Assembly: GCA_965652295.1 (NCBI GenBank)
Contig: CBFGTS010000006.1
Span: forward strand, 208,043 to 272,042
Direction: 5' to 3'
From: an uncultured Haloferula sp.
Lineage (GTDB): Bacteria > Verrucomicrobiota > Verrucomicrobiia > Verrucomicrobiales > Akkermansiaceae
DNA: 64,000 nucleotides
Shown: positions 40,980-58,589 of the stretch, piece by piece
Position numbering within the stretch: the first letter of the stretch is position 1
How the letters are laid out: each line of letters opens with the position of its first letter
Translations under genes and position numbers: made by a program
The notes under the pieces: model-generated
Seen by the model: the letters and a program-made list of their open reading frames with translations, nothing else
Database searches by the model: none
What the model was told of the DNA's origin: nothing

Positions 40980-41000
40980 GAACAAAAGGCGGGTCCCTGT

Positions 41001-41291: not shown

Positions 41292-41313
41292 GCCGCTGCC
41301 GAAGCTTCTCCCC

Positions 41314-41348: not shown

Positions 41349-41377
41349 GTCCCGCGCCCTCAGGAGACGGGGAAAAA

Positions 41378-41409
41378 GCAATCCACCGCCCGAAACGCGC
41401 AAGCCAGCG
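41378..41409 (+). promoter_or_regulatory. Tandem direct repeat with 21-bp period (GCAATCCACCG / GCAAGCCAGCG), candidate AraC-family site
   Basis: Each half is identical to a half-site at 18388 or 17666. Confidence 0.6.
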
Positions 41410-41448
41410 CGCGCGCGCCGTGACTCCCTGCGCCAGGTTCCGGGCCGC

Positions 41449-42111: not shown

Positions 42112-42929
42112 CTCCTCCCCTGCTCGAACGACCCATCCGGCTCGATACAAAAGCCTCCGACCTCCTCCCGGCTCTCGCCTCCTTCGGACCCTTCTGCCTT
42201 CAGGCACGGACCCGTCACCTCCAGCTTTCCGTATGGGGCGATCCCGCGGAAACCCTCATGACCACAGGCCCCCGGGCGTGGTTTCCCGCCCTCGGGCTTG
42301 AGATCAACCGCGACTTCATCGCCGCCGTCCATGCCAGTCCGCTGCCCACGCTTCCGGATCACGCCGGCATCGTCGAACTCGACTCCGGCGACGGCCGCGG
42401 CCGCGTGGGCTTCGCGGTCGGGACCGAATCCACGTCCCGCGACCGGTTCCACCGCCTCATCGGGGACTTCGGCCTGGAGGAAATCGAGAGCCGCCACCTC
42501 ATCGAGTGGCGTCGGGGCCTCGACGCCGGATTCCAGATGTGCCCCTGCTGTCAGCAAGCGGCCCTCGAGCGCCGCGAACGCCCCGACCTCCATCCACTGA
42601 CCGACATCCTCACCCATTGCGCCCAGCTCGACCTCGAGTTGCTCGTCGAGTTCGGCGACGAAATGTTCTCGCTCTCCACCTTTTTCGTGCCAGGCGACCT
42701 CGACACGCGCGGAGCCATCACCGTCACCTCGGCGGATGAAAAAGGGATCCTGCGCATCGACCCCTTGCTCCTCCACGCCCTGTGGATCCTGCCGAAAGCC
42801 ATCGATGGGGAACTTCGCACCGTGCTCCAGGCCTTCGACCCCCTGGGGCGGCGGATTTTCTCCCTGTCCTGCCCGGATGCCGACCAAATCCTCCCGTGGC
42901 AGGACTACGCCCGCGCCTTCTACGGCTGA
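42108..42929 (+). CDS. Divergent HemS/ChuS/PhuS-like haem-handling protein with a CPCC linker
   Basis: IRLDTKASDLLPALASFG and LLHALWILPKAIDGELRTVLQAFDPLGRRIFSL echo the HemS N- and C-domain patterns. Confidence 0.5.
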   Translation: MTPPLLERPIRLDTKASDLLPALASFGPFCLQARTRHLQLSVWGDPAETLMTTGPRAWFPALGLEINRDFIAAVHASPLPTLPDHAGIVELDSGDGRGRVGFAVGTESTSRDRFHRLIGDFGLEEIESRHLIEWRRGLDAGFQMCPCCQQAALERRERPDLHPLTDILTHCAQLDLELLVEFGDEMFSLSTFFVPGDLDTRGAITVTSADEKGILRIDPLLLHALWILPKAIDGELRTVLQAFDPLGRRIFSLSCPDADQILPWQDYARAFYG

Positions 42930-43020
42930 AGGCGTAGCTCATGTCACAGATCGGCACCTCGCCGCAGCCTCCCGGCTTGCCTTGACGGCCGGGCCGGAGT
43001 TTCCTCGTGGCGACGCTGGC

Positions 43021-43168
43021 GCCGGGATGCATGGAATCCGGTGAAAGTCCGGAACAGACGCGCTGCGGTAACTGGTCACGAATTCCCACACAGAGCCAAT
43101 CCTCGCCATAGCGGGGGTGAAGGCGGGAAGGAGGCTTGGAACCAGGAGTCCGAAAACTTCATCCCGCT
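43021..43168 (+). ncRNA. Cobalamin riboswitch
   Basis: GGAATCCGGTGAAAGTCCGGAAC..CGCTGCGGTAA...GCCAAT...GAAGGC...GAGTCCGAAAAC. CGGGATG pairs with CATCCCG. TTGACG lies upstream; B12-uptake genes lie downstream. Confidence 0.85.
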
Positions 43169-43306
43169 GGCTGCCGTCCGATTCCGTGGAATCCGAGCCG
43201 CGGAAATCGTCACACTCCTTCGCGATCCAAGGAGTGACGGGACATGCCCACCAGGCCTTTCGCCCGGTGTGTTCTCGCTCGGTCCAACGAGAACCAATAC
43301 ATCCAA

Positions 43307-44077
43307 ATGAAACACCGTTTCCTGACGCTCGCCGCGTTCGTGGCGTCCCCGCTTGCCCACGGCGCGACCGTGACCTTCGAAGACCTCAGCCCGGGCATCC
43401 CCTACGCTGGCGGAGGCAGCTATGAAAACGGGGCCAACCTCTCCGGCTCCTTCACCTCCGGCCCGCTCACGCTGTCGAACAGCTACAACGCCACCTGGGG
43501 TTCGTGGTCCGGCTGGAGCTACTCCACCACGACCGATGACACCACCGCGGGCTTCGACAACCAATACAGCGCCTTTCCCGGTTCCGGAGCCGGTGGCAGC
43601 GCGACCTATGCCATCGCCTATGCCGATGCCGCCATCGAGATTCCCACAGGCTACAGCATCGGCTCACTGGCGATCGCCAACACCACCTACGCCGCGCTCT
43701 CGATGCGCGATGGCGATGCGTTCTCCAAGCAGTTCGGCGGCCCGAGCGGCGACGATCCCGACCTGTTCCAGATCACCTTCACCGGCTACCTGGCGGGAAA
43801 CCCCATCGGCAGCGTGACCGCCGACCTCGCCGACTTCACCTTCGCCGACAACAGCCAGGACTACATTCTCGGCGACTGGTTGCAGGTGGATCTGTCCTCG
43901 CTCTCCTCCGCCGACCTCGTCCGGTTTTCCTACTCCTCCACCGATGTCGGCGACTGGGGCATCAACACGCCCACCTACATCGCCGTCGACAGTATCGTCC
44001 TCACTGCCGTGCCCGAACCCTCCGCGCTGCTGCTCGCCGCCCTCGCACCGCTCGCCGTCCTGCGCCGCCGCCGCTGA
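43307..44077 (+). CDS. DUF4465-domain PEP-CTERM protein, likely corrinoid-binding
   Basis: WSGWSYS, NQYSA, NTTYAALSMRDGDAFSKQFGG, WLQVDLSSL, SSTD..WGINTPTYIAVD; VPEPS tail. Confidence 0.85.
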   Translation: MKHRFLTLAAFVASPLAHGATVTFEDLSPGIPYAGGGSYENGANLSGSFTSGPLTLSNSYNATWGSWSGWSYSTTTDDTTAGFDNQYSAFPGSGAGGSATYAIAYADAAIEIPTGYSIGSLAIANTTYAALSMRDGDAFSKQFGGPSGDDPDLFQITFTGYLAGNPIGSVTADLADFTFADNSQDYILGDWLQVDLSSLSSADLVRFSYSSTDVGDWGINTPTYIAVDSIVLTAVPEPSALLLAALAPLAVLRRRR

Positions 44078-44132
44078 ATCAGGAGAGCGGTTTTGCAAAC
44101 CGCTTCCCCGTTCTCCTTTGCCGTTTGGTTCC

Positions 44133-46124
44133 GTGAAACACCGGCTCCTCCTCATCCTCGCCCTCGGCCCGTTCCTGCGGGCCGGGGCACAGGAACGTGA
44201 AGAAGACGGACGACTCGATCCATTGGTGGTCGAGGCGGACGAGCAGAACGAGGACACCGTTCTTCCGCTCCATTTCGCCGGCAACGCCACCGTGATCGGC
44301 CCGGAAGCCATCGCCCGATCCGGCGCGCGCTCCGTCGCCGATCTCCTCGTTTCCAAAGGCGGCCTCCGCCTCACCAGCGCCACCGGGAATGCCGCCGACT
44401 CGTCCGTTCACCTCCGCGGCTTCGGCGAGAACTCCGCTTCCCGCGCGCTGGTCCTCATCGACGGCCGCCCGATCAACCGCGCGGACATGGCCTCCGTCTC
44501 CTGGCTCGAAGTCCCGCTCGCCCGCATCGAGCGCGTCGAGATTCTCCGCGGCAGCCACAGCGCCCGCTTCGGCGACAACGCCGTGGGAGGCGTGATCAAC
44601 CTCATCACCAAGTCGGGACCTACGACATCCACCGTAGTAGAAGCCGCCGGCGGCAGCGACGGCACCCTGATCGCCCGCGCCTCCCATCAGGACACGCTCG
44701 ACGGCCACGGCATCGGCTTTGATTTCGAAAAAAACCTCACCGACGGCTGGCGCGAAAACGCCTTCAGCGATCTCGAAAGTGCCTCCGTCCGCTGGGACAA
44801 GTCGCTCGCCCGAGGTATTGAAGCCGATCTCTCCCTCTCCTGGGCCGACGAGCGCAACGGCTTTCCCGGCCCGCTCGGCAAGGACCGCTACCTCGCCGAT
44901 CCGCGGCAATCGATCTACGCCCGTTTCGGCCAGGCCGATCAGTATTTCAGCGAGGAAACCCGCTGGCGCGCCGGGGGCTCGATCCTGCTCGGCGACCGCT
45001 CCGACCTCGCCTTCGAGCTACCCGTTTCCCTCTACCAGCGCGACCTCGCCTGGAACTTCGGGCCCGGTTTCCACAGCGACAACCTCCTCGAAACCCTCGC
45101 CCTTTCGCCCCGCCTCACGCTGCGCCGCGACACCTGGTCGGCCGAGGCCGGCATCCAGCTCCGGCGCGACTCGCTCGAGCTCTCCCAATTCGCCGAAATC
45201 CAGCGCATCAATCGCACCACCGATGCCTCTCTCGCCCGCGACATCTTCGGCGTCTTTGCCAGCGGCGAGTGGGAGCCGTTGGAAAACTGGCACCTCAACG
45301 CCGCCGCCCGCTGGGAGCGATCATCCATCGAGGCCCACTCCAGTAGTTACATCTTCCCCGCCGACCCCGCCCTCAACTTCGCCCGCACCAACGCTGAATC
45401 CAACACCGCCTTCCAGGCCGGAATCCGCTGGGAACCCACCGCCACCCTCTCCTCTTGGTTCCGCTACGACCACCTCTACCGGCTCCCCTCGACCGACGAG
45501 ATCGCCTCCTATCAGGGCTTTCCGCTCGCCATCCCCTTCAACGACCGGCTCCACGCCGAAACCGGCCACAACCTCGAACTCGGCGGCGAGTGGACACCGG
45601 GTCCGTGGACCCTCGGACTCAACGCCTTCGCCCAATGGCTGGAGGGCGAGATCGCCTACGACTACACCCAGAACCTCAACACCAACCTCGCCGACACCCG
45701 TCGCCTCGGCCTCGAAACCACCGTCGGTTATGAGACCGAAAGGTGGAGCGCCGACCTCCACTACACTGCGCTGAAGGCAGAGTTCGAAAGCGGCCCTTAC
45801 ACCGGTCGTGAAGTCTATCTCGTCCCCAACCACGAACTCACCGCCACCCTCGCCTGCCGGCCCACCGAATGCATCACCCTCCAAGCCGAGTACCAGTGGA
45901 TCGGCAGCTCGTTCGAGGGAAACGACTTGCTCAACACCGCCGAAAAGCTCCCCGCCTACGACGTCGTCAATCTTCTCGTCCGCTACGAACCGAAGCCCGG
46001 GCTCTCCCTTTACTGCCGCATCAACAACCTCCTCGACGAACGCTACGCCACCGTGAAATACGGCGGCCTCTGGTATCCCGCCGCCAGCCGCCAGTTCCTC
46101 CTCGGCGTCCGCCAGGAGCTCTAA
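44133..46124 (+). CDS. btuB: TonB-dependent receptor, BtuB-like
   Basis: DPLVVEA TonB box; plug VHLRGFG..LVLIDGRP..IERVEILRG..GGVINLIT; located in a riboswitch operon. Confidence 0.75.
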   Translation: MKHRLLLILALGPFLRAGAQEREEDGRLDPLVVEADEQNEDTVLPLHFAGNATVIGPEAIARSGARSVADLLVSKGGLRLTSATGNAADSSVHLRGFGENSASRALVLIDGRPINRADMASVSWLEVPLARIERVEILRGSHSARFGDNAVGGVINLITKSGPTTSTVVEAAGGSDGTLIARASHQDTLDGHGIGFDFEKNLTDGWRENAFSDLESASVRWDKSLARGIEADLSLSWADERNGFPGPLGKDRYLADPRQSIYARFGQADQYFSEETRWRAGGSILLGDRSDLAFELPVSLYQRDLAWNFGPGFHSDNLLETLALSPRLTLRRDTWSAEAGIQLRRDSLELSQFAEIQRINRTTDASLARDIFGVFASGEWEPLENWHLNAAARWERSSIEAHSSSYIFPADPALNFARTNAESNTAFQAGIRWEPTATLSSWFRYDHLYRLPSTDEIASYQGFPLAIPFNDRLHAETGHNLELGGEWTPGPWTLGLNAFAQWLEGEIAYDYTQNLNTNLADTRRLGLETTVGYETERWSADLHYTALKAEFESGPYTGREVYLVPNHELTATLACRPTECITLQAEYQWIGSSFEGNDLLNTAEKLPAYDVVNLLVRYEPKPGLSLYCRINNLLDERYATVKYGGLWYPAASRQFLLGVRQEL

Positions 46125-46153
46125 CCGTGGCGGCGGATTTCATCCGCCATGCC
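46125..46153 (+). repeat. REP-like palindrome family A (GTGGCGGCGGATT(T/G)CATCCGCCA)
   Basis: Other copies at 52373-52395 (minus) and 62955-62983. Confidence 0.75.
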
Positions 46154-46165
46154 ATCCATCTCCTC

Positions 46166-47071
46166 ATGAAGCCACTTCCCTCCCTCTTCCTCCTCCCCAC
46201 CCTCGCCCTCGCCGGCCCCTATCCCGGAGCCGCAGGCACCGCCGCCAGCGACGCGATCCCCAAAGCCGACCCCCGTATCCTCGCCTGGGCCGCCGGCCAC
46301 AGCGAAATCGTCTATGGCACCGACGTCGACGCCACCTGGCGCACCCCCGCCAAAGCCACCGGCCCTGCCGTCGGCGACTCCTTCGACATCGTTTCCCTCG
46401 GAAACGGCGGCCGCATCACGATGTATTTCCCCCACCCCGTCAGCGACGGCTCCGGCCCCGACTTCGCGGTTTTTGAAAACGGCATCAGCCACACCTTCCT
46501 CGAACTCGCCTTCGTCGAGGTCTCCAGCGACGGCGTCAACTTCCACCGCTTTCCCAACGACTCACTTACTGCATCCGCTGTAGGTGCATTCGGTTCCGTG
46601 GATCCCACCAACCTCTCCGGCCTCGCCGGGAAATACATACAGGGCTTCGGCACGCCCTTCGATCTCGCGGCCGTTCCCGACTCGCCCACGCTCGACAAAC
46701 AACGCGTCGTCTTCATCCGCCTCATCGACATCATCGGCAACGGTCAGACCAAGGACAGCGGCGGAGACCCCATCTACGACCCGACGCCGACCATCGGCAG
46801 CGGTGGCTTCGACCTCGACGCCATCGCCGTCCTTCACCTCAACGACGGCCCGTTCCCCATCGTCACCCACGGCTTCGAAGACGAAGAGTTCGTCCTCGAA
46901 TGGCGCAGCAACCCCGCCAGCAGCTACCGCATCGAAACCGGCATCACCCTCGACGATTGGCAGCCCGCCGACACCCCGGCCACCTCCACCACCACCGCCC
47001 TCACCCGCTGGACCACCTCTGCCCCAGGCGACTCGAAGCGCTTCTGGCGCGTCGTGCGGATCGATCCCTAA
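46166..47071 (+). CDS. Secreted cell-surface protein in the B12 locus, with C-terminal putative sorting domain
   Basis: Signal peptide; VSLGNGG, GPDFAVFENG, ELAFVEVSSDG, GGFDLDAI; tail YRIETGITLDDW...RFWRV. Confidence 0.8.
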   Translation: MKPLPSLFLLPTLALAGPYPGAAGTAASDAIPKADPRILAWAAGHSEIVYGTDVDATWRTPAKATGPAVGDSFDIVSLGNGGRITMYFPHPVSDGSGPDFAVFENGISHTFLELAFVEVSSDGVNFHRFPNDSLTASAVGAFGSVDPTNLSGLAGKYIQGFGTPFDLAAVPDSPTLDKQRVVFIRLIDIIGNGQTKDSGGDPIYDPTPTIGSGGFDLDAIAVLHLNDGPFPIVTHGFEDEEFVLEWRSNPASSYRIETGITLDDWQPADTPATSTTTALTRWTTSAPGDSKRFWRVVRIDP

Positions 47072-48846
47072 GGCGACCTTCTCAAGCCCATCACCCACTC
47101 GGCCAGCGCCTCCGTTTCCCCGTCCGAGAACAACTCGTGCCCCGGCATGTCGGTACCTGGCAGGCCCCAACGGATCGCCCGCGCCACCGTGATCCGATCC
47201 GCCGTCCAAACAAAAGGCCCCTCCACCAGGTTCGTCGGGCGCTTCGCGAAGCGCGCCGCCAGCTCGCCATCGCCGCTGCCGCCCTCGCCATGGCACACCG
47301 CACAGTGTTTCGAAAAAAGCACTCGCCCGTCTCCACGCGGCTCGCCCTCAGGCACCCAGCTTGCCGCCCGCTCCGCGCGCCACAGCCTGGCCGCATCCTG
47401 GCCGCTCCTCAGCCAATCGATCAGGTCCTCGCCACGCCTGTCCTCGAACAAGTGCGCGTAGGAAGGCATCGCGCTGCTCTTCACGAATTTCCGTGGAGCC
47501 ACGAAATGTTCCCGCAACCACGCGGCCGACCGGCGCGCTCCGACGTGCGCAAGATCCGGCCCCTGCCGCCGGTTGCCGATCACGACCGGCCTCTCATTTA
47601 ACACCTCCTCCGTCACCGATGGCGGTCCCCAGCCGTCCGGATCACCCTCCCTCACGTAACGCGAGTGGCACCCGATGCATCCCTCCGCCAGGTACACCGC
47701 CCGGCCCCGGTCCACCGCCGAACCCGATTTATCATCGCCCGGAGTCACGGCAAGCCACCCCACCGCCAGTGCCACGCCGCCCACCGCCGCCAGCATCCGC
47801 CACTTCCGGAAACCAAAAACCGCCAACGCCACCACAAAGCCGGAAGCTACGACGAACATCGTAGGGACCCGGTGAAGGCTCTGCGCCATACCGATGCCAT
47901 TAGCCGAGCCGAACCAACCCGCCACCGCGAATACCCACGCCGCCCGCGTGGCGGCGGAATTCAGCCGCCAAGCCTCCCCCATCCCGAATCCCGGCCATGC
48001 CACCAGCGCCGTCGAGTAAAGCGAAACCCCCACCGGATACAGCCAACCCGCCGCCGTCCTCGATTCCGCCTCGTTCACCGCCAGCGCGGCTGCCGCAAGG
48101 ATCGCCCACGCGGCGAACAACAGACCCTTCCCTCCAGCCTTCGCCAGCCACCAACCCGCCACCAGCGCCGCCCCCAGGTGCAGCCCTGCGTTCCTCCACA
48201 GCATCGCCGGGCCCCACGTCCCCTCCTTCAGCTCCCGCTCATGCTGAATGATGAAAAATGCCGCCGAGTCCAGCCACACCAGCGCCAGAAACGCCAGAAC
48301 CGTGGCTGCCCCGGCCCGGGGCAGGCCGTGGCGACGGCGGCCCGCCGTCACATCCACACCCGGCACCAACCCCGCCCCCACCAACGCGAACCCCACGCTC
48401 ACCCACGCCTGTTGATCCGGCGTCGCCGAAAACACCCACGGCACATTGCACACCGCATAACCCAACCCCGTTCCCAGCCCTGTCCAAGCCACCGTGCACC
48501 ATCCCGGCAACAAGGCCGCCAGAGACACCGTGGCAGCTCCAACACCCATTCCCGTGATCACGGCAACCAGCGCCAGCCCGGCACAACCGTGCGCCCACGG
48601 TGCCAGCGCACCCGCCAACGCGCACAGACCCAGCGAAGCCCGCAGAGCCGACGTCGTTGCACCGCGCCTCGCAACCGCAAAGCCCGCCGCCACTCCCGCG
48701 ACGGCCATCATTCCCAACATGACTTTTTCTCCCCACGCACCCACGCCCACCCCGCGCAGCAACTCGACGAAGGCGAACTGCGCGAAGATCAGGAAATAGC
48801 CATACACCGCCGCCACCGCGCCGACCGCCCGCAACTTCGTTCTCAT
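47068..48846 (-). CDS. Polytopic membrane domain fused to a CcoO (cbb3 subunit II)-like haem c domain and a second cytochrome c
   Basis: About 12 hydrophobic segments, then EGCIGCHS...GNRRQGPDLAHVG...MPSY, then CAVCHG...MPG. Confidence 0.8.
   Translation of the reverse strand: MRTKLRAVGAVAAVYGYFLIFAQFAFVELLRGVGVGAWGEKVMLGMMAVAGVAAGFAVARRGATTSALRASLGLCALAGALAPWAHGCAGLALVAVITGMGVGAATVSLAALLPGWCTVAWTGLGTGLGYAVCNVPWVFSATPDQQAWVSVGFALVGAGLVPGVDVTAGRRRHGLPRAGAATVLAFLALVWLDSAAFFIIQHERELKEGTWGPAMLWRNAGLHLGAALVAGWWLAKAGGKGLLFAAWAILAAAALAVNEAESRTAAGWLYPVGVSLYSTALVAWPGFGMGEAWRLNSAATRAAWVFAVAGWFGSANGIGMAQSLHRVPTMFVVASGFVVALAVFGFRKWRMLAAVGGVALAVGWLAVTPGDDKSGSAVDRGRAVYLAEGCIGCHSRYVREGDPDGWGPPSVTEEVLNERPVVIGNRRQGPDLAHVGARRSAAWLREHFVAPRKFVKSSAMPSYAHLFEDRRGEDLIDWLRSGQDAARLWRAERAASWVPEGEPRGDGRVLFSKHCAVCHGEGGSGDGELAARFAKRPTNLVEGPFVWTADRITVARAIRWGLPGTDMPGHELFSDGETEALAEWVMGLRRSP
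48301..48347. repeat. Palindromic element family B, in-frame inside a CDS
   Basis: GCTGCCCCGGCCCGGGGCAGGCCGTGG..CGGCGGCCCGCCG; other copies at 49245-49291 and 50434-50476. Confidence 0.8.
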
Positions 48847-49223
48847 CGGCACCAGCCTTTCCGGAGTCCATAAACCTGAACTGCGGCGATGAAGGCGTCG
48901 GTCGCCGCCACGCCCATCCACGCGGCTTCAAGTTCCCCCACCCATATGTTAACTCCTACAAATACCGCCACCAGCGATCTGACCATGGCGGTGTAGGCCC
49001 AAACCACCGTCGCCTCGCGGCTACCGCGGAACGCCCATAGATAGCTGAAGCCCACGCTCCCGACGAAGATTCCGATCCAACGGACGAAGACGAAGGAAAG
49101 CGGGGAAACCGCCTCGATCCGCAGACTCGTCAGCACGAGCTCGGGACTCACCAGCAACGCGATTCCCGTCAACGCATCGATCGCCCCGACGCCAGCGCTC
49201 CACTTCACACAAAAACTTCTCAT
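48843..49223 (-). CDS. Small 4-TM membrane protein
   Basis: 126 aa, hydrophobic; ATGA overlaps on both sides. Confidence 0.75.
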   Translation of the reverse strand: MRSFCVKWSAGVGAIDALTGIALLVSPELVLTSLRIEAVSPLSFVFVRWIGIFVGSVGFSYLWAFRGSREATVVWAYTAMVRSLVAVFVGVNIWVGELEAAWMGVAATDAFIAAVQVYGLRKGWCR

Positions 49224-50497
49224 GCCAGCACCTCCTTCGCCAAACGTGGCTGCCCCGGCTCGGGGCAGGCCGTGGTTGCGGCGGTCCGCCGCAGATCGAA
49301 GAACCATCGGACCGAAACCCCCGACATCACGGCCCCGCACGTTGCCCTCACCCCCAGCCCCGTCTCCCTCCAAAGGGGCTGCTCCACCATCCACCCATAT
49401 CCCTCACCCTCCAGCCAACCCATCACCGCCAACACCCCCACCATCGACAGCGCGGCCGCATTCCAAACCACGATCGATCTCGTACTTCCCACCTTCACCC
49501 CCAGCAGCGTCAGCAGCAGCGCGCAGAACGAGGTCGTGAAGCCAGCCATCGCCAGGTGCGAATGCGCCACCAGCCCTTGCGTGAATTTCAACCGGTCCAG
49601 CACCCAGGGGAAATACGCGGTCACTCCGCTCAGCACCAGCAGCACCCACCACCCGAACATCGACCGCCGCCACACCGCCGAAGCCTCCGGCCAATCGTAG
49701 CCGCGCCACCATTTCGGCAGCAGCACCACCCACGGCACCAGCATCAGCATCGCCCCCATCTGCCACGCATCGTGGTGCGTCCCGCCGAGCCATTCGGTCA
49801 CGCCGAAAACCACCCCTGAGCTCGCGAAGAAAGCCATCACCGCACGCCGCGATCCCCCCGCGTTGCGCTTCAACCTCACACTCGCTGGCAGGAACAGCAT
49901 CAGCGCCACCACGAACAGGGTCGACCCCAGCAGGCTCGATCCCGTGGGCCCGCCCGTCGACACATCCACCGGTGGATACACCCCGGGCGACGACGCATAG
50001 GTCATTCCGAAAGGCACCACCGCTAGCAAACCCAGTCCGCACCAGCGCAGCGCCGACTTCCGACCACTCAGCAACGCCAGCCACAGCACCCCCATCGCCA
50101 CCAGCAATCCGGCCAGCGCCCCGCCCTTCCAGTCCAGGAAGATCTTGCCCGAACTCCCTCCCTGAAGCCAACCGACGCATCCCAGCGCCAGCGCCGTCGT
50201 CCACGCCCACAGCGACGCCTCCACCCATCGACGGCGCACCTCGTAGATCCGGAAAAGCCACGCCACCAACGGCAGCGCCGTCCAACCATAGAGCTGGCCA
50301 TTCAGATGGACCGGGATCCAGCGTCCATACGTCCACTCCCCCACCTGCCAACCGGGAAAAAGCAACAGCAGCGAGAGCCACAGCCCCACCGCGTTCGCCA
50401 CCACCAGCCACCCCAGCGCATGCCCCGCCGCCAGCTGCCCCGGCCCGGGGCAGGCCGTGGTCGCGGCGGCCCGCCGCGTGTGGATTCCCTCCTTCAC
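49220..50497 (-). CDS. Highly divergent haem-copper oxidase subunit I (CcoN/NOR)-like membrane protein
   Basis: TYGRWIPVHLNGQLYGW corresponds to CcoN YGRLRPLHTN; KFTQGLVAHSHLAMAGF corresponds to the HxH haem ligands. About 12 TM helices; GTGA overlap. Confidence 0.65.
   Translation of the reverse strand: MKEGIHTRRAAATTACPGPGQLAAGHALGWLVVANAVGLWLSLLLLFPGWQVGEWTYGRWIPVHLNGQLYGWTALPLVAWLFRIYEVRRRWVEASLWAWTTALALGCVGWLQGGSSGKIFLDWKGGALAGLLVAMGVLWLALLSGRKSALRWCGLGLLAVVPFGMTYASSPGVYPPVDVSTGGPTGSSLLGSTLFVVALMLFLPASVRLKRNAGGSRRAVMAFFASSGVVFGVTEWLGGTHHDAWQMGAMLMLVPWVVLLPKWWRGYDWPEASAVWRRSMFGWWVLLVLSGVTAYFPWVLDRLKFTQGLVAHSHLAMAGFTTSFCALLLTLLGVKVGSTRSIVVWNAAALSMVGVLAVMGWLEGEGYGWMVEQPLWRETGLGVRATCGAVMSGVSVRWFFDLRRTAATTACPEPGQPRLAKEVLA
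49245..49291. repeat. Palindromic element family B, copy 2 (C-terminus of the CcoN-like gene)
   Basis: Near-identical to 48301-48347. Confidence 0.8.
50434..50476. repeat. Palindromic element family B, copy 3 (N-terminus of the CcoN-like gene)
   Basis: Near-identical to 48305-48347. Confidence 0.8.
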
Positions 50498-51159
50498 GCC
50501 TCCACCCTCCCGTCCCGCATTCCCACGACCCGTTGGCAACGCTCCGCCAGCCCGATGTCGTGCGTCGCCATCACCAGCGTCAGTCCCTTCTCCGCGACCA
50601 ACCCCATCAGCAACCCGAACACCGCCTCCCGGTTCCGCTCGTCCAGCGCCCCGGTCGGCTCGTCCGCCAGCAGCACCCGCGGCCGGTTCATCAGCGCGCG
50701 GCACAGCGCGCCCCGTTGGCGCTCGCCACCTGAAAGCTCCCGCACCCTCCGGCCCAGCCGGTCCGCAAGCCCCGTCTCGTCCGCCAACTCCCGCACCCGC
50801 TCCCGCGCCTTCCTGCGCGCCATCCCCACCGCCACCGCCGGCACCAGCAGGTTTTCCTCCAGCGTCAGCCCGGGCATCAGATGGTGGAGCTGAAATACGA
50901 AACCCACCGTATGTCGAAGCAACCCGCGGCGGGAACCCTCGTCGACCACGCCGCGCCCGGCCACCGTCACCCGCCCCTTCTGCGGGATCTCAAGGCCGGC
51001 GATCACATTGAGCAGCGTCGATTTCCCACAGCCCGAGCTACCCACCAGCGCGACCGTCGAGCCTTCCTCCACCGTCAGGTCCACGCCCTTCAGCACCTCG
51101 ATACGGCCTTCGTCGTAGCTCCGCCAGACGTCATTCACTTCCACGATCGCTTTCATCAT
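50494..51159 (-). CDS. ABC transporter ATP-binding protein, LolD/MacB type
   Basis: GSSGCGKSTLL, GFVFQLHHL, LSGGERQR, LLADEPTGALD, ATHD. Confidence 0.95.
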   Translation of the reverse strand: MMKAIVEVNDVWRSYDEGRIEVLKGVDLTVEEGSTVALVGSSGCGKSTLLNVIAGLEIPQKGRVTVAGRGVVDEGSRRGLLRHTVGFVFQLHHLMPGLTLEENLLVPAVAVGMARRKARERVRELADETGLADRLGRRVRELSGGERQRGALCRALMNRPRVLLADEPTGALDERNREAVFGLLMGLVAEKGLTLVMATHDIGLAERCQRVVGMRDGRVEA

Positions 51160-52268
51160 TCGAATCTCAAGGCCTCCGCGGGTTTCAACCTCGCCGCATG
51201 CACCGCCGGATACAGCGCCCCGCCGATCCCCGTCAGCAACGCCAGCCCGACCGCTCCCAGCACCTCCACCATTCCCACCTGCGGCTCGATGTATCCCTGC
51301 AGGGCCGGCAACGCTTTCAGCAATCGCAGTCCCCCGACCGAAAGCAACCAGCCCGCCAGCACTCCGATCACCGACAGCGCCAGCGATTCACCCAGAATCA
51401 TCCGCGCCACCTGCCCGCGCGAAAATCCGCACACCCGCAGTACCGCCAGTTCGCGGATGCGGCTGAAAACCGAGAGGATCATCGTGTTCGTCACGCTCAA
51501 CCCGCCAAGAAGAAAAGCGCATCCACCCACCACCCACGCGGTCGTCTTCATGATCTTGAACTGCGAGTAGCTCTTGCTGAATTCCTCGTTTTCCAAAGCT
51601 GTCAGCCGCCCGTGGTTCGCCTCGATCCACGATTTCACCTCGCCCGCTTCGTGACCGTCGGCAAGCGCCACGGTGACCACCGATGACACCCCTTGCTTGT
51701 GGAACGCCCGCTGGCACTCCTTCAACGGCATGAACACTCCGCCATTCTCAAAACCGTTCTCCATCCGCACGACCCCCGCCACCGGGTAGCTTTCCTGGCC
51801 GAGCTGGACCTCCTCTCCGGCCACCGCAGTGAGGAAATCCGCCGCCCTTTCACCGAGCACCACAGAGCGTCCGTCATCGGAGAATCCCGACACGTCCCCG
51901 CCCAACCACTGCGCTTTCGAAAGCCGTCCGTCACTGGCGCGGACGCCGAAGCACGTGACCACGGGACGATCCGGCGCGGTGATGATGGTGAACAAAACCG
52001 GCTGCGCCTCCTTCACGAAAGACTGTCGCTCCAGCTCGTCCACCAGCGTTTCCGGCACGTTGCTGAAGAACAGGTCCGAGACGTTCTTCTCGAACACCAC
52101 CATCTCCGCATCGCTGCGAAGGATCTTCTCGAACATCTTCACCGCGCCGCCGAGCAGCCCCACCACGCTCAGCATCGTCGCCACACCCAGCGCAATACCT
52201 GTGGCCCCGATCGCCGTGCGCACGCGGTGCCGCCGGAGGTTGGTTAAAATCAATTTCCAGAGACTCAT
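51156..52268 (-). CDS. ABC transporter permease, MacB/FtsX/LolC type
   Basis: NLRRHRVRT..GIALGV, NTMILSVFSRIRELAVLRVCG, YPAVHAARLKPAEALRFE. Confidence 0.93.
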   Translation of the reverse strand: MSLWKLILTNLRRHRVRTAIGATGIALGVATMLSVVGLLGGAVKMFEKILRSDAEMVVFEKNVSDLFFSNVPETLVDELERQSFVKEAQPVLFTIITAPDRPVVTCFGVRASDGRLSKAQWLGGDVSGFSDDGRSVVLGERAADFLTAVAGEEVQLGQESYPVAGVVRMENGFENGGVFMPLKECQRAFHKQGVSSVVTVALADGHEAGEVKSWIEANHGRLTALENEEFSKSYSQFKIMKTTAWVVGGCAFLLGGLSVTNTMILSVFSRIRELAVLRVCGFSRGQVARMILGESLALSVIGVLAGWLLSVGGLRLLKALPALQGYIEPQVGMVEVLGAVGLALLTGIGGALYPAVHAARLKPAEALRFE

Positions 52269-52291
52269 ATCTTGAAGATCCTTTTCACTAA

Positions 52292-52350
52292 CAGTGGCAT
52301 GACCGGGACCACCGACTTGTCGGGGCACGCGGTCATGCCACTGGCAGGTG
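52292..52350. repeat. REP-like palindrome family C (CAGTGGCATGACCG...CGGTCATGCCACTG)
   Basis: Inverted near-identical copy at 60884-60936. Confidence 0.8.
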
Positions 52351-52356
52351 ACACGT

Positions 52357-53283
52357 TCATCTCGATCCGGCTTGGCGGATGCAATCCGCCGCCACATTTT
52401 CCGGCACCCCTACCCGCAGCGCGGACAGCATGCCCCACCGCTCGGGAGGTCCGGGAAGCTTCGACTGCACCCGATCCCCGATTTCCACCAGACGCTCCAG
52501 GCGGCAAAGCGCCGCGGAAAACCCCTCGGCCGCCACCAGGTTCGGACGACCCAGTTCCTCGTCGCGTCCGGCCGATTTCCCGGCTCCGCCGATCACGTCC
52601 TTGACGTCGTCCGCCGCTTGGTACGCCAGCCCCCGTAGCAAGGCCAGCCGGTCCAGCAGCCGGAGTTCCCTGCCGGTGCCGCGTCCGACCATCGCCGGCA
52701 GGACGATCGTCAACCGCAGCAGATCGCCGGTCTTTCGCGCGGCCACCTCGCTGACGTCCGCCACGCTCTGGCCCCCGTGCCAACCGGCAATGTCGTGCGC
52801 TTGTCCACCGATCATCCCGTGGGGGCCAAGACAGCGGTCCACCAGCTCGCCGCCCAGCTCGCGGCGCCCACGGCTGGCCCCGTTCATCCCCTGCCAGAGC
52901 AACACGTAGCCGCGGTTGACCATCGCCAGCGCTGCAAGCATCGCCACACCCTCGCCATGCAGCAGATGCAGGGCAGGCATCCCCCGGCGCTCGCGGGCGT
53001 CATCCATCGCAGGGAAGTCATCGAAAACCAGCGAGGCCGTGTGCAGGTACTCGATCCCACAGGCCATGGCCCGCGCCGCGCCCTCGGCCACACCCATCTC
53101 GATCCCGACCAGGTAGGCCGTCACCGCCCGGGTCAGCGATCCCGGCCGCGCCAACAGGTCGCCAACGGCCGCCGCCAAGCGCGGCTCGATCCCATGGGGC
53201 CGGCCCATTCCCTGGCGATAGCTTTCCGCCATCAGCGCCTTGGCACACCCGGCCCTCTTCGCCCACCACTGTTCGGGATTCAT
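52357..53283 (-). CDS. Polyprenyl diphosphate synthase family protein (IspA/CrtE-like)
   Basis: EYLHTASLVFDDFPAMDDARERRG (FARM), GMIGGQ, KTG, YQAADDVKD (SARM). Confidence 0.9.
   Translation of the reverse strand: MNPEQWWAKRAGCAKALMAESYRQGMGRPHGIEPRLAAAVGDLLARPGSLTRAVTAYLVGIEMGVAEGAARAMACGIEYLHTASLVFDDFPAMDDARERRGMPALHLLHGEGVAMLAALAMVNRGYVLLWQGMNGASRGRRELGGELVDRCLGPHGMIGGQAHDIAGWHGGQSVADVSEVAARKTGDLLRLTIVLPAMVGRGTGRELRLLDRLALLRGLAYQAADDVKDVIGGAGKSAGRDEELGRPNLVAAEGFSAALCRLERLVEIGDRVQSKLPGPPERWGMLSALRVGVPENVAADCIRQAGSR
52373..52395 (-). repeat. REP-like palindrome family A copy inside the 3' end of the polyprenyl synthase gene
   Basis: The reverse complement is GTGGCGGCGGATTGCATCCGCCA. Confidence 0.7.
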
Positions 53284-53289
53284 GCGTCG

Positions 53290-53829
53290 CTAGATTTTAC
53301 CCACCAGGTGGAAACGAATGCTCAGACCCGGCTTGACCGTCATCACCGCCATCGAGCGGATCACCGGCAGGCCGAAGTTCGTGTAGTCCATGCTCGCCGT
53401 GCCATCGATCGTGACCCAGTCGCCTTCCTTTTTCACCGTGTAGGGAAAGGCGATCGTCTTGCCCACGCCGTGGACCGTCAGGGTGCCCATCGCCAGATGT
53501 TCGCCACCCTCGTCCCAGGTTTTGATGAACTTAAAACTCCCGGCAGGCTTTCCGCCGCCCAGCCACTTGATCATCTCCCTGTCGCGATCCGCCTCGCCCG
53601 TTTTCAGATCATCGAAGGTCCACGCCAGCTCCAGGGCCTGCGGTTTCAGCGTCGCCGCATCCCCCCTGACTTTCGCCGTGTAGTCCTCCAGCGTCGCCGT
53701 GAACGCATGTCCGGTCGCCTTCGCATCCACTTGGATGCGGCTCCGGTTTTTATCGACCTTCATCGGTGCGGCATCCGCCGCAGCGCCCAGCATCAGCCCG
53801 CAAAGCGCGAGGCCGATCGATTTCGTCAT
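53290..53829 (-). CDS. YceI-family periplasmic (polyisoprenoid-binding) protein
   Basis: Signal peptide; LKTGEADRDREM, GTLTVHGVGK, DYTNFGL. Start may be up to 53898. Confidence 0.85.
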   Translation of the reverse strand: MTKSIGLALCGLMLGAAADAAPMKVDKNRSRIQVDAKATGHAFTATLEDYTAKVRGDAATLKPQALELAWTFDDLKTGEADRDREMIKWLGGGKPAGSFKFIKTWDEGGEHLAMGTLTVHGVGKTIAFPYTVKKEGDWVTIDGTASMDYTNFGLPVIRSMAVMTVKPGLSIRFHLVGKI

Positions 53830-53935
53830 CGCCTTTCCGGCACGCGGGTGCTTGTTCTCGCCAAGCATCCCGCAGGTGGTTTTCGTTTTCATTTCCATCT
53901 CGGGGTTCGTGTTTTCAGTTCAAAAATTCATCGCC

Positions 53936-54406
53936 ATGAAGATCCGGTCTTTGCTCGTTCTGCTTCTCGCCTTCCTCGCCCTCCCCTGCCTTGCCGAGCC
54001 CTACAAGCCCGGGCAGAAGATCGACGTCTTCTCGGCCCGTGACGCCGATAAGAAGGAGTTCACGCTCGATCCCTCCGGCACCCGCTACCTGCTCGTCAGC
54101 CATGACATGGAAACCGGCAAGGCGGCCAACAAGGCACTCGACGCCAAAGGTGCCGCCTACCTGCCCTCGAAGAAGGCGGTCTTCGTGGCGAACATCCACG
54201 GCATGCCCGGCATCGGCCGCATGTTCGCCCTGCCGAAGATGCGGAAATACGCCCACCGCATCATCCTCGGCGACGACGCCGCGATGATCGCCCGCTTCCC
54301 CCAGCAACAGGGAAAAGTGACCGTGCTCAAACTCGCGGGCGGCAAGGTCGCCTCGATCCAATATTGGAACCCCGCTTCCGAAGCGGTCGATGGCTACCTC
54401 AAGTGA
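53936..54406 (+). CDS. Secreted thioredoxin-like-fold hypothetical protein
   Basis: Signal peptide; FVANIHGMPGIGRMFALPKMRKY; strong codon bias. Confidence 0.7.
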   Translation: MKIRSLLVLLLAFLALPCLAEPYKPGQKIDVFSARDADKKEFTLDPSGTRYLLVSHDMETGKAANKALDAKGAAYLPSKKAVFVANIHGMPGIGRMFALPKMRKYAHRIILGDDAAMIARFPQQQGKVTVLKLAGGKVASIQYWNPASEAVDGYLK

Positions 54407-54548
54407 TCCGGCGGGCGCCGGCAGAAGGAAATCGGGTCGTGTGGGATGCTCCATGGCATGGGTGAAGGAAATCTGAAGGGAGGAAGCGGCTCCGGCCACA
54501 CAGGCCGGACCGGCACGCCCGCAGGAACGGGCGCTTCATCTCCGCTTA

Positions 54549-55064
54549 TCAGATCCGCATCACTCCACCCCGCCACGACGGCGGCCCGTCCCGCGGGCTC
54601 ACCGTGACCCGCGCAAGCACGTGTGATTCTTCCCGGAACTCCGGAGCCGGCACCGGCTCCGCTGTTTTCACAGAAAGCGCCCCGGTATCACCGGGATGTT
54701 CCGCAGCCATCTCCTCCGGATCCGGGCCGGCGGTTCCGCCGCCCCACCGCAAGTGGTGGTCGCCGCGTCCGGCCTCATCGGTGCCGACCATCAGCGTCTC
54801 CAGCAGGTTGTGGTGCCTCGGGCCACTCGTTGCCTCCGGGTGGTGCAGCGTCAGGACGAAAGCGCCACGCTCATCGATTTCGCAGCGGACATCGTGATTT
54901 CCGCTGCATCCGAAAAACGCCACCAAGCTGCCGAGCAAGCTCGGCAAAAAGGCCAGCGCCAACAGGATCATGCCCAGCCAAACCACCACCCCACCCCGCC
55001 CCGCACGAGCCCGGCTCCGGGCAAGGCCGGAGAGGCGCGGAAAGGTGGGGATCACCGGGTTCAT
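54549..55064 (-). CDS. Hypothetical membrane-anchored His-containing protein
   Basis: TM helix, then H/C-containing segments (NHDVRC, LHH, RHH, DHH). Confidence 0.5.
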   Translation of the reverse strand: MNPVIPTFPRLSGLARSRARAGRGGVVVWLGMILLALAFLPSLLGSLVAFFGCSGNHDVRCEIDERGAFVLTLHHPEATSGPRHHNLLETLMVGTDEAGRGDHHLRWGGGTAGPDPEEMAAEHPGDTGALSVKTAEPVPAPEFREESHVLARVTVSPRDGPPSWRGGVMRI

Positions 55065-55152
55065 ACAGCGGTAGCGACCGGACACTGCCGAATCGTTTAC
55101 AGCATCCGCATTTTTTTCAAGGCATCGCTCGTAACGGACACCACTACGGGAT

Positions 55153-56103
55153 TCACCCGCCCCCCGCCCCGACCCGCCAGCTCTCTCCGATCCTTCCCGT
55201 AAAAAACCCCTCCACTCCTGTGGCCGCCAGCCTCAGCGGCGGCTCCCCCAGCGGCTCATCGGTCAGGCGAAACGTGCCCCAGTGCATCCCCACCGCCCTC
55301 CGGCACCTGGTTTCATGGAAAACCCGCACCGCCTCCTCCGGAGTCATATGGACCGGCTCCATGAACCAGCGCGGCGCGTAGGCACCGATCGGGATCATCC
55401 CGAAATCCACCGGCCCCAGCCTTTCTCCAATCTCCCGGAATCCCGGTGTGTAACCGCTGTCCCCCCCATGCCATAGCGACACCCCGCCACCTTCCACCCG
55501 GAAGCCGCAACACCGCCCCCGTCCGCGATCGAACGGCGTCCGCGCCGTGACATGGCGCGCCGGGGTCGCGGTGATCCGCACCCCTGGCAGGACCTCGGCT
55601 TGACCGAACCACTCCAGCTCCGTCACTTGCGAAAACCCTTTCCGTTTCAGCCACCCCTCGTGCCCGTGGGCCACCACCAGCGGCAACCCGGTTCCCAGCG
55701 CCCGCAGGGTGGGAAGATCCAGATGATCGTAGTGCGTATGGGTCAGCAACACGGCATCGACCCTTCCCAATTCCCCGGCTCCGCATGCAGGCGGGGCCAA
55801 CCGTTTCATCCCTTTCATGGGAACAGGGGCGCAATGGGCGGAAAGCATCGGATCCACCACCAATCGCAACCCGCATCCTTCCAAAAGGAACGAGGCGTGA
55901 CCCAGCCAGGTCACGCGCCAACCGGACGACGGAGCTTCCTCGCGCACCCACGGCAGCACCTCCGCCGGAAGATCCGGAGCGGACGATGCAGGCTCCCGCG
56001 GACCGAGTCGGAGCTTCCATCGCAACACATCGCCCCAGCCCGGGCCTTTGCAGTGCCATGACTTGTCCAGACTCTCACCGTGGCCCCTTTCCCGCTCCAT
56101 CAT
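55153..56103 (-). CDS. MBL-fold metallo-hydrolase (NAPE-PLD/RomA-like)
   Basis: WLGHASF, THTHYDHLD, PARH, GGDSGY, PIGAYAPRWFM..VHM, MHWGTF. Confidence 0.9.
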   Translation of the reverse strand: MMERERGHGESLDKSWHCKGPGWGDVLRWKLRLGPREPASSAPDLPAEVLPWVREEAPSSGWRVTWLGHASFLLEGCGLRLVVDPMLSAHCAPVPMKGMKRLAPPACGAGELGRVDAVLLTHTHYDHLDLPTLRALGTGLPLVVAHGHEGWLKRKGFSQVTELEWFGQAEVLPGVRITATPARHVTARTPFDRGRGRCCGFRVEGGGVSLWHGGDSGYTPGFREIGERLGPVDFGMIPIGAYAPRWFMEPVHMTPEEAVRVFHETRCRRAVGMHWGTFRLTDEPLGEPPLRLAATGVEGFFTGRIGESWRVGAGGG

Positions 56104-56167
56104 TCCTTGCGCAGCCTGGAATCCAGACGACCCGGTGCGCAAGCGCCGCGATGACCGCCGGTGTCGC

Positions 56168-57559
56168 TCAGAACGAGCCCGTCATCTCCGAGGGCACGAC
56201 CCATTGATCGAACTGCTCCGCCGTCAACAGACCCTGCGCCAGCGCCGCTTCCTTCAGTGAAACGCCTTCCGCATGCGCCTTCTTCGCGATCTTCGCCGCG
56301 TTGTCGTAGCCGATGTGGCGGTTGAGCGCGGTGACGAGCATCAAGGAATTCCGCAGGTGCTCGTCGATGCGCGCCTGGTTCGGTTCGATCCCGACGGCGC
56401 AACGGTCGTTGAAAGCCGCGCAGGCATCGGCCAGAAGCGAGGCCGATTGGAGAAACGCGTGAATCATCACCGGCTTGAACACGTTCAGCTCGAAGTGCCC
56501 GTTCGAGCCGGCAATGCCGATCGTGACATCGTTGCCCATCACCTGCGCGCACACCATCGTCAGTGCCTCGACCTGAGTCGGGTTGACCTTGCCCGGCATG
56601 ATGGACGAGCCGGGCTCGTTCGCCGGGATCAGGATTTCTCCGATACCGGACCGCGGACCCGATGCCAGCAGGCGGACGTCGTTGGCGATCTTCATCAGGC
56701 TCACCGCGAGCTGCTTCAGCGCCCCGTGCGAGGCCACGAGCGCATCGTGCGCGGCGAGCGATTCGAACTTGTTCGGAGCGGTCACAAATGGATGCCCCGT
56801 CAGCTCCGCGATCTTCGCCGCCACTTTTTCGGCGTATCCAGCTGGCGCGTTAAGCCCGGTGCCCACGGCCGTGCCGCCGAGCGCGAGTTCGGAAAGATGG
56901 TCGAGCGACCGCTCCAGCGCACGCAATCCGTGGTCGAGCTGCGCCACGTATCCGGAAAACTCCTGCCCGAGGGTCAAAGGGGTGGCGTCCATCCAATGGG
57001 TGCGCCCGATCTTCACCACGCTTCTCATCGCCTCCGATTTCGCTGCCAGCGTGTCGCGCAACCCGCGCACCTTCGGCAGCGTCTGCTCCACCAGCACCTT
57101 GTAGCCGGCGATGTGCATGGCGGTGGGAAAGGTGTCGTTCGAGGACTGCGACTTGTTCACGTCGTCATTCGGATGAATGTCCGGCTTGCCGCTGCCGAGT
57201 TCATGACCCGCCAGGACGTGGGCGCGGTTGGAGATCACCTCGTTGGCATTCATGTTGGACTGCGTGCCGGAGCCCGTTTGCCAGATGACGAGCGGGAAAT
57301 GATCGTCCAGCTCGCCGGCGATGATTTCGTTGCACACCTCCGCGATCCGCTCCGCTTTCTCCGCCGGGAGAACTCCCAACTCCGCGTTCGTCAGCGCGGC
57401 CGCCTTCTTGAGATAACCGAACGCGCGCACGATCCCGACCGGCATCGAAGCCGGCGGGCCGATGGGAAAGTTCGTGATCGAGCGCTGCGTCTGCGCCCCC
57501 CAATATTTGTCGTCGGGCACTTCCACCGTGCCCATCGTGTCGCTTTCCGGCCGGGTCAT
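56168..57559 (-). CDS. fumC: Class II fumarate hydratase
   Basis: [46 protein letters not shown]. Confidence 0.97.
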
Positions 57560-57670
57560 GCTGGCACTATACCCGAGCCTACCCGGGGCACGAGCGCCGG
57601 CTTTCTCAGCGGATCCTCGCCAGCCACCAGAATGTCGGGAGCAGGACGATGGCAAAGAAAGCCGTCACCA

Positions 57671-57830
57671 TCAGCTTGAGGCCGCGCGGAACCACCAGAT
57701 CGCCGAGCCCGCGAGAATACCTCCGGCGAGAAACAACCCCGCAGCCGTCCAAACGAGCTTGGTGGCCAAGCCTCCGAAGCGACCGAAATGCAGCGGGTTG
57801 ACCCGCGATTCGAGCCGCAGCCTCCGAACG
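57671..57830 (-). pseudogene. C-terminal remnant of a PepSY-associated TM protein
   Basis: PLHFGRFGGLATKLVWTAAGL...GSAIWW matches the PepSY_TM C-terminal pattern; there is no N-terminal part. Confidence 0.65.
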
Positions 57831-57895
57831 CAGCCAACCTCATCGCCCGCTCGCAAAAACCGTTGCCATTTCAGCCGCTTCGCCCCAAAAGCCTC

Positions 57896-57912
57896 TTGCG
57901 ACAGCGTCGCAA
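57896..57912. promoter_or_regulatory. Palindrome TTGCGAC-AGC-GTCGCAA upstream of the PepSY operon
   Basis: Same arms as 40558-40572; 11 bp before the ATG. Confidence 0.6.
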
Positions 57913-57923
57913 TAGCGATTTTC

Positions 57924-58568: not shown

Positions 58569-58589
58569 GCTACTCTCCCACTCCCACCC

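Follow-up and report, generated by a model that had tools for sequence, protein, structure and literature searches.

A conserved operon of Verrucomicrobiota joins a haem-copper oxidase scaffold without its copper-site residues to a prenyl synthase, a predicted exporter and a YceI protein

As described by Murali et al. (2024; PMC11214002), oxygen reductases of the haem-copper oxidase (HCO) superfamily are defined by a CuB site with three histidines and a tyrosine, and nitric oxide reductases (NORs) by an FeB site with three histidines and a glutamate; gNOR, with two histidines and an aspartate, is presented there as the first family to replace one histidine. In PMC9113575, YceI genes are described as linked or fused to genes for a di-haem cytochrome b561 (LcoA-BcnA), proposed to re-reduce the bound quinone, and BcnA binds menaquinone tightly according to PMC5350466. 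Here we analyse a locus that places an HCO-like protein beside a YceI gene, a prenyl synthase gene and exporter genes. It lies on contig CBFGTS010000006.1 (GCA_965652295.1) of an uncultured Haloferula sp. (Akkermansiaceae, Verrucomicrobiota), in a stretch of 64,000 nt that we call the window and to which all coordinates refer.

The locus comprises seven open reading frames (ORFs) running in the same direction on the minus strand, from 53829 to 47068, as a preceding sequence-only reading had described:

g1: 53290..53829, minus strand, secreted YceI-family lipocalin, predicted quinone or isoprenoid carrier (PF04264, E 8.3e-11)
g2: 52357..53283, minus strand, dedicated short-chain trans-prenyl diphosphate synthase, likely of the C20/geranylgeranyl diphosphate (GGPP) type (PF00348, polyprenyl_synt)
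g3: 51156..52268, minus strand, MacB/LolCE-type ABC permease, predicted exporter or extractor (MacB_PCD and FtsX)
g4: 50494..51159, minus strand, LolD-like ABC ATPase (ABC_tran)
g5: 49220..50497, minus strand, HCO-fold membrane protein of 425 aa, derived from or sister to CcoN (assigned by fold and profile, without a Pfam match)
g6: 48843..49223, minus strand, small protein of 126 aa with 3-4 transmembrane (TM) helices, likely a g5 subunit (without a Pfam match)
g7: 47068..48846, minus strand, major facilitator superfamily (MFS) fold, anchor helix and two c-haem domains, 592 aa (FixO and Cytochrom_C)

The gap between g1 and g2 is 6 nt and that between g2 and g3 is 88 nt. Each of the four junctions from g3 to g7 is a 4-nt overlap, in agreement with the overlapping stop and start codons noted earlier for the last five genes. 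Searches of Pfam and NCBIfam returned no family for g5 or g6, and promoter prediction found no sigma-70-like promoter. The absence of ccoP, Q, G, H, I and S was also confirmed, as no separate gene for any of them occurs in the ORF list from 40000 to 60000 or in a family scan of 17 ORFs there, while the second c domain of g7 itself scores to CcoP-like models.

For comparison, 189 loci were fetched, of which 173 were non-redundant at 95% g5 identity and 86 were informative (at least 4.5 kb upstream and at least 3 kb downstream); the sample is dominated by two Verrucomicrobiota families, and related loci are not independent. All seven genes were present in 67 of the 86 informative non-redundant loci. 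Taken singly, g1, g2 and g6 were each found in 80, the ABC genes in 78, the MFS part of g7 in 84 and its cytochrome part in 85. The set is also retained through reordering: in one family (f8) it reads g2 g3 g4 g6 g7 g1 g5 g10. Because 67 loci keep all seven genes and the set persists when the gene order is shuffled, the association is more than chance, and the possibility that the genes are not conserved together, raised in the sequence-only reading as a way to refute it, is not what these loci show. Insertions within the operon in L036, L043, L071, L074, L076 and L098 looked unrelated to the system.

Relatives of g5 occur in the family (27 full-length and one partial among 201 genomes), the class (25 of 401), another class (6 of 401) and other genomes of the phylum (15 of 300). 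The nearest named homologues are from Haloferula, at 67-69% identity. A g5 profile search against 1.84 billion representatives gave 213 proteins (clusters at 50% identity) at E<=1e-30, and collection scans gave 337 relatives from genomes and, from 600 metagenome stretches, 475; 80 from each of the two scans were kept. No g5 relative was found in viral contigs or plasmids, and no g7 MFS domain in plasmids. Weak family-wide matches (E 1e-6 to 1e-19) were left out, as they resemble a different CcoN-like paralogue, a likeness checked in the host only. Leads beyond the phylum come from ESM Atlas clusters made up largely of Acidobacteriota proteins and from homologues of g5 and g7 that carry the name Bdellovibrionales. 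The co-occurrence across phyla that had been proposed for checking is thus seen in part: the set is kept together, and its genome-level synteny comes from Verrucomicrobiota, the distant loci being metagenome contigs.

The combination had been called undescribed, and a literature search agreed: it found no paper describing either this cluster or a family of HCOs without the entire CuB triad, with the majority of subscription journals outside its reach, as were the PMC11214002 supplementary datasets, in which the family could be listed. The system is real, conserved and, as far as the literature was searched, undescribed; what we infer is its function.

g5 has the 12-helix fold of HCO subunit I. 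In a search with its AlphaFold (AF2) model (pLDDT 92.7), the best match was CcoN (3mk7_A, Z 27.1, rmsd 4.1, 379 aligned residues), followed by NorB (Z 26.3). The top ten matches were all HCO subunits (Z 27.1-15.7), and the next match scored 9.8. A profile comparison with CcoN gave E 8.8e-11 (9g6b_A). Fold and profile together bear out the earlier assignment of g5 as CcoN-like, while a single-sequence search of the PDB gave nothing meaningful. Residues were mapped onto CcoN from gapless HMMER profile alignments, because single-template hhalign was weak (probability 7% for the host CcoN, 0.2% for NorB) and placed a gap in loop VII.

The haem ligands are conserved. H64, H312 and H314 align to the haem histidines of CcoN and are kept in 103, 103 and 101 of 103 diverse g5 members, respectively, which is the C-family set (two histidines for the low-spin haem b, one for the high-spin haem b3). 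The CuB ligands are not. The CuB positions are S187, E235 and W236 in the g5 of the window; none of 120 close homologues has a histidine at any of the three, and among the 103 diverse members 40 have no histidine there, 53 have one, eight have two and two have three. The helix VI histidine is kept in 10 of the 103. At the position of the cross-linked tyrosine of helix VII (229, valine in the window) a tyrosine was found in 0/103, with six members having one within one residue. The NOR glutamate position (191) holds a glutamate in 1/103, and at most one triad histidine is present in 93/103. Because the CuB triad and the active-site tyrosine are lost, g5 has the hallmarks of neither an oxygen reductase nor an NOR, and it fits none of the HCO families as described in PMC11214002. 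Immediately upstream of the window the host genome has an intact ccoNO fusion gene, and it also encodes an intact cNOR and an intact aa3-like oxidase. The statement that this is not a respiratory oxidase is therefore well supported, and we consider it highly probable that g5 no longer carries out binuclear O2/NO chemistry.

Where CcoN has the segment WWYGHN, g5 has GG(A/P)TGxS, and the modelled helix VI begins only at 186. New conserved positions have appeared: G183, T185 and S192 are each kept in 102/103 and Q246 in 96/103. An acidic residue or histidine occupies 235 or 236 in 78/103 and is lacking in 25/103. These alignments and the secondary structure, from which the pocket was derived, suggest that the distal pocket has been opened and is under new selection rather than in decay.

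Two proteins of alignment A5 (P0265 and P0278) have all three CuB histidines and no tyrosine; they may be intermediates in metal-site loss. A tree with CcoN and NorB outgroups could not root the g5 family, the outgroup branches being very long. Outside the window, the host encodes a second CcoN-like paralogue without CuB histidines and without the helix X haem histidines (G000:C24:9552-11027, minus strand, L116). It adjoins a CcoO-like gene in an apparent alternative-complex-III/aa3 operon, similar weak matches occur in most genomes of the family, and it is possibly a separate degenerate HCO family.

The sequence-only reading had described g7 as a domain of about 12 TM helices fused to a CcoO-like and a second c-type haem domain. 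This is correct, and the previously unnamed part (residues 1-351) is a complete MFS fold of 12 TM helices in two bundles (Z 28.8, rmsd 3.2, 333 aligned residues). Conserved residues in it (D193, S194, H223, W311) suggest a substrate site. The CcoO-like domain (CIGCH 390-394, M460) scores 82 bits to FixO against a cut-off of 29.6 and is followed by the second c domain (CAVCH 515-519, M567). Of 120 homologues, 119 retain both CxxCH motifs; M460 is kept in 121 of 121 aligned rows and M567 in 120 of 121. A g7 reduced to the cytochrome part, with no MFS domain, was seen in L019, L121, L130, L135, L136 and L154; in L130, a 2.2-kb contig, yceI, g5 and cytochrome c are directly adjacent in a minimal order.

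A complex of g5, g6, four haems and residues 345-590 of g7 was modelled. Docking of g7 on g5 was predicted with an ipSAE of 0.87 versus 0.00 for the best control (at least 78% of contacts agreeing between runs, partner pLDDT at least 82), a mark reached by 116 of 157 solved complexes but also by 2 of 215 mismatched pairs. Resemblance to solved cbb3 structures may account for this pass. The predicted interface contains highly conserved g5 residues (Y57, G58, R59, K304, F305, T306) and invariant g7 residues (E388, G389, C390, C393, R426, R427, M460, P461). The complex prediction proposed earlier thus gives a g5-g7 pair, with the same reservation. In this model g6 made no confident contact with the scored partner, g5-g6 contacts lying outside the scoring. 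g6 is a likely g5 subunit, fused to the g5 C-terminus in five of eight proteins read, seven of which were long g5 matches picked by length. Six of 13 g6 homologues show a weak DUF4345 match. P0242 (1130 aa, g5 plus g7) is not a true fusion, as its linker reads like an out-of-frame g6.

The operon thus shares much with cbb3 CcoNOP: the CcoN fold and haem ligands, a CcoO-like mono-haem domain followed by a second c domain that scores to CcoP-like models, and a predicted interface between the N and O subunits. NORs are also similar in that they are superfamily members without the tyrosine, that cNOR uses a c-type subunit, and that g5 matches NorB with Z 26.3 (families as in PMC11214002). The operon differs from cbb3 in that the CuB triad and tyrosine are missing, helix VI starts with a glycine-rich loop, CcoO is fused to an MFS domain, the accessory genes ccoQ, G, H, I and S are not seen, and a prenyl synthase, an exporter and a YceI protein are linked to it.

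Both aspartate-rich motifs of g2 are intact, as had been stated (DDFPAMD, 88-94; DDVKD, 225-229), and their residues are invariant in 14/14 aligned homologues except for the last aspartate of the first motif, which is in the consensus. Together with RRG, GQ and KT motifs and a two-residue insertion in the first motif, these are the marks of a short-chain synthase. Small residues at positions -5/-4 of the first motif argue against a C15 product and suggest C20; in g2 these positions are Ala-Ser, invariant in 14/14. The profile is closer to farnesyl diphosphate/GGPP synthases (E 1e-51) than to octaprenyl synthases (8e-23), with scores under every NCBIfam cut-off. The enzyme is the third prenyl synthase of the genome, besides the long-chain and IspA types, and its sequence suggests a C20, GGPP-type product.

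The exporter is less uniform. Both window proteins stay below the LolCDE equivalog cut-offs (lolCE model for g3, 79 bits versus 362; LolD for g4, 206 versus 308). A distant clade is without the ABC genes; in it g2 immediately precedes g5, and g7 is followed by an HpnN/BstA-like MMPL gene. ABC genes only were found in 83 loci, MMPL only in 8, both in 0 and neither in 2, and ABC genes occur in 0/12 MMPL loci. HpnN and BstA are the best-scoring matches of the MMPL proteins, and one locus has a weak BstC-like gene. Since the g5 tree groups the MMPL loci in a single clade, there was probably only one swap. That one slot is filled by either of two unrelated lipid extractors is the strongest evidence for export of a hydrophobic product. 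The arrangement of an inner-membrane extractor with a soluble periplasmic carrier is shared with LolCDE-LolA, HpnN and BstABC, with ABC and MMPL versions being interchangeable in the operon; it differs in its scores below the named cut-offs, in a YceI carrier and in the inclusion of a redox complex. In two related loci a Ste24/CAAX-prenyl-protease-like M48 peptidase follows the MMPL gene (L127:8358-9617, L150:8889-10169), and in seven ABC-less loci a secreted protein of about 210 aa without family lies between yceI and g2 (L027:11693-12328, L143:6484-7116, L171:8380-8997, L213, L215-L217).

The only solved sequence match of the YceI protein g1 is 5IXH_A (E 0.0012), which PMC9113575 names as BcnA. 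In comparison with LcoA-BcnA as described there, the operon shares a YceI carrier tied genetically to a membrane di-haem b protein (yceI is near g5 in 80/86 loci, the haem binding of g5 being deduced from its ligands), and would share with it the proposed quinone redox cycling and envelope protection. It differs in that the partner is an unrelated HCO-fold protein with c haems, no operon gene matching the b561 family, and in the added prenyl synthase, MFS domain and exporter; the quinone mechanism is only proposed in PMC9113575 as well. By analogy, the operon would work like LcoA-BcnA without being a member of it.

Two further genes upstream of g1 are accessory members:

g8: 53915..54406, plus strand, divergent small secreted protein without family, accessory, start likely at 53936 (no Pfam or NCBIfam match)
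g10: 55153..56142, minus strand, metallo-beta-lactamase-fold hydrolase, accessory (Lactamase_B_2)

They lie near g5 in 48/86 (g8) and 52/86 (g10) loci, and g10 moves with the set, on either side. No solved relative of g8 was found, its two plasmid homologues are in unrelated contexts, and a Pseudomonas homologue is automatically named 'FAD/FMN-containing dehydrogenase'. Between g8 and g10, a histidine-containing ORF (54549-55085, minus strand) recurs in no more than 3 of 95 loci, and these are closely related.

A link to menaquinone comes from other loci. In L140, g2 is fused in one ORF to isochorismate synthase (281.9 bits versus a cut-off of 224.75) directly before g5. MqnP-like UbiA genes are found at the operon in L133, L153, L178, L131 and L141, on three separate branches; in L131 and L141, MqnE lies within the operon between g8 and g2 and scores over the cut-off; a UbiE-like methyltransferase occurs in L119, L153 and L178; and menD abuts g10 in five close relatives. 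The host encodes MenA and MenD elsewhere in its genome. PabBC beside L143 and an isochorismate-synthase-like gene in L103 (under the cut-off and separated by other genes) were not counted. The proposal that the operon makes and traffics an isoprenoid lipid or quinone is supported by the synteny, the ABC/MMPL swap and the menaquinone genes recruited to or fused with it. Of the lipid, quinone or prenylated cofactor originally considered, a short-chain menaquinone is now the likeliest product.

We tentatively favour a module that would make a short-tailed menaquinone, load it onto periplasmic YceI and redox-cycle it via a copper-free c-c-b-b3 haem chain, a reading drawn from sequence, models and analogy to which we give somewhat less than an even chance. 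The C20-type prenyl diphosphate would come from g2, and host MenA or MqnP, sometimes operon-encoded, would join it to the naphthoquinone ring. The MFS domain of g7 may move the precursor or product across the inner membrane, where the MacB/LolCDE-type ABC transporter, or an HpnN-like MMPL protein in other lineages, would lift the quinone out and load YceI. g5, g6 and g7 would form one complex with the haem chain, and the quinone head would react in the g5 pocket, where CuB, the tyrosine and the bulky start of helix VI gave way to the conserved glycine-rich loop and usually one polar residue. Because the potential of menaquinone is low and that of CcoO-type c haems is high, quinol oxidation with electrons passing to periplasmic c-type cytochromes is the likelier direction. 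The likely purpose would be to manage the redox state or the antioxidant defence of the envelope, with a two-component system in control. The more general claim, that of a previously undescribed HCO family which has no binuclear O2/NO chemistry at all and acts on an organic molecule, in which a copper-free haem enzyme oxidises, reduces or oxygenates a purpose-made short-chain menaquinone exported to a soluble carrier, is in our judgement evenly poised.

Several observations weigh against such a quinone module. The favoured quinol oxidation is opposite to antioxidant recharging, unless the haem potentials are shifted. g2 is not nearby in 6/86 loci, and one branch has the ABC genes, g5 and g6 without g2. 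Menaquinone genes adjoin only 12/173 loci (about five lineages; many contigs are short), and the other 161, the window included, have no menaquinone gene in the fetched flanks. The MqnP-like and UbiE-like proteins score under the named cut-offs, and the neighbours could be housekeeping genes co-located by rearrangement. Finally, E235 and H241 are present in 120/120 close homologues, H236 in 63/103 elsewhere, and the full histidine triad in 2/103; the invariance of E235 and H241 leaves room for a remodelled metal site.

The loss of binuclear chemistry is common to the quinone module and to two other views of g5-g7. The first is a tailoring enzyme, possible though rather unlikely, in which a histidine-ligated haem fed by cytochrome c would activate O2 and hydroxylate, epoxidise or cyclise a prenylated naphthoquinone or another C20 product before its export on YceI. 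Electrons would flow as in cbb3, the gene order runs from the synthase (and exporter) to g5, g6 and g7, with g2 directly before g5 in the ABC-less loci, and the pocket is open, with a conserved glycine loop. The g5 fold list also includes, as a weak helical match (Z 8.6), styrene oxide isomerase, a membrane enzyme with haem b whose substrates are organic molecules. However, some loci keep g5 and the cytochrome domain in the absence of g2 or of the MFS domain (L019, L130), and oxygenases with a histidine-ligated haem and no proximal thiolate are uncommon. Of the earlier claim that the system redox-modifies its product, tailoring is only one of three readings; a reversible cycle in which the carried quinone is oxidised and reduced suits the data no less well.

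The second view, which we regard as doubtful, is a membrane peroxidase in which cytochrome c would supply the electrons for reducing lipid hydroperoxides or H2O2; the quinone antioxidant or damaged lipids would be ferried separately by YceI and the exporter. The loss of CuB and tyrosine would remove four-electron chemistry and leave a high-spin haem. Bacterial cytochrome c peroxidases carry a distal Glu or Gln, which the acidic or histidine residue at 235/236 and Q246 recall, but the former is absent in a quarter of the members (25/103). An OmpR-type two-component pair adjoins 37/86 loci, and the YceI-b561 system protects against lipid peroxidation as reported in PMC9113575, yet peroxidase activity alone does not explain the tight link to the prenyl synthase and menaquinone genes.

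Similarly doubtful is a product other than a quinone: some different envelope lipid derived from C20, such as a prenyl phosphate or alcohol formed with the metallo-beta-lactamase-fold hydrolase or PAP2, which would serve in an envelope-stress response, with the menaquinone neighbours incidental. The frequency of g10, the PAP2, LTA-synthase-family and NUDIX (IDI-like) genes in some Verrucomicrobiota loci, the resemblance of the MMPL proteins to hopanoid and sterol transporters and the lack of a nearby menaquinone gene in most loci are in line with it. However, an aromatic head group is indicated by the fusion of g2 to isochorismate synthase and by MqnP-like, MqnE and methyltransferase genes having been recruited more than once, and the haem chain requires a redox-active partner. 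Very unlikely, finally, is an O2 or NO reductase with a remodelled Glu/His/Gln metal site whose isoprenoid genes supply a prenylated haem or quinone donor: the invariant E235 and H241, the occasional helix VI histidine or full triad and the gNOR precedent (as described in PMC11214002) speak for it, but most members have one CuB-position histidine or none, the tyrosine and almost always the NOR glutamate are missing, no haem O synthase is among the operon genes, and the genome has an intact cbb3, an aa3-like oxidase and a cNOR.

One repeat lies between genes of the operon:

52290..52345, no strand assigned, REP-like palindrome in the g2-g3 gap, a host-specific repeat and not a conserved part of the system

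This hairpin (-38 kcal/mol) has 11 blast hits across the host genome, making it a genome-wide repeat, and is absent from the list of predicted terminator-like sites. A split of the operon at 52292, considered as a conserved feature, was rejected, as the repeat is genome-wide and the g2-g3 gaps are short in relatives. Three copies of a second genome-wide repeat lie in frame inside g5 and g7. REP-like palindromes were seen in frame in g5, g7 and the tail of g2, at termini or loops (48298-48347, 49242-49291, 50427-50476, 52369-52395, 47948-47974), and the peptides encoded by the operon repeats had no match in other stored proteins.

The operon is flanked by other units of the window. On the plus strand, 43033-47071 contains a cobalamin riboswitch (43033-43157) followed by genes for a DUF4465 PEP-CTERM protein, a TonB-dependent receptor and a secreted protein, likely a B12-uptake unit; it converges on g7 with a 4-nt overlap and is not among the recurring operon neighbours in relatives. 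At 39639-42929, an AraC regulator is divergent from three ORFs (40593, 41254, 42108) without a Pfam or NCBIfam match. The ORFs at 57462-60876 (plus strand) read like a flavinylation cluster of PepSY-TM, DUF2271, DUF4198 and ApbE genes.

Databases label these proteins as cbb3 subunits or as hypothetical. Because these genes are often annotated automatically as 'cbb3-type oxidase subunit I/II', calls of microaerobic respiration in Verrucomicrobiota can be inflated. All HCO families as described in PMC11214002 retain a binuclear centre for O2 or nitrogen-oxide chemistry; more than 200 sequence clusters that keep the haems and the cytochrome c wire without the metal site would represent a scaffold with another job and would serve as a naturally occurring control on the contributions of CuB and the tyrosine. 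With a synthase, an exporter, a carrier and a redox partner in one operon, all of which can be expressed together, the cargo of YceI in vivo and the exit of quinone from the inner membrane become testable. If the more general claim of a copper-free haem enzyme acting on an exported menaquinone is true, the cell would have quinone beyond its inner membrane as a separate pool, served by an electron wire of its own.

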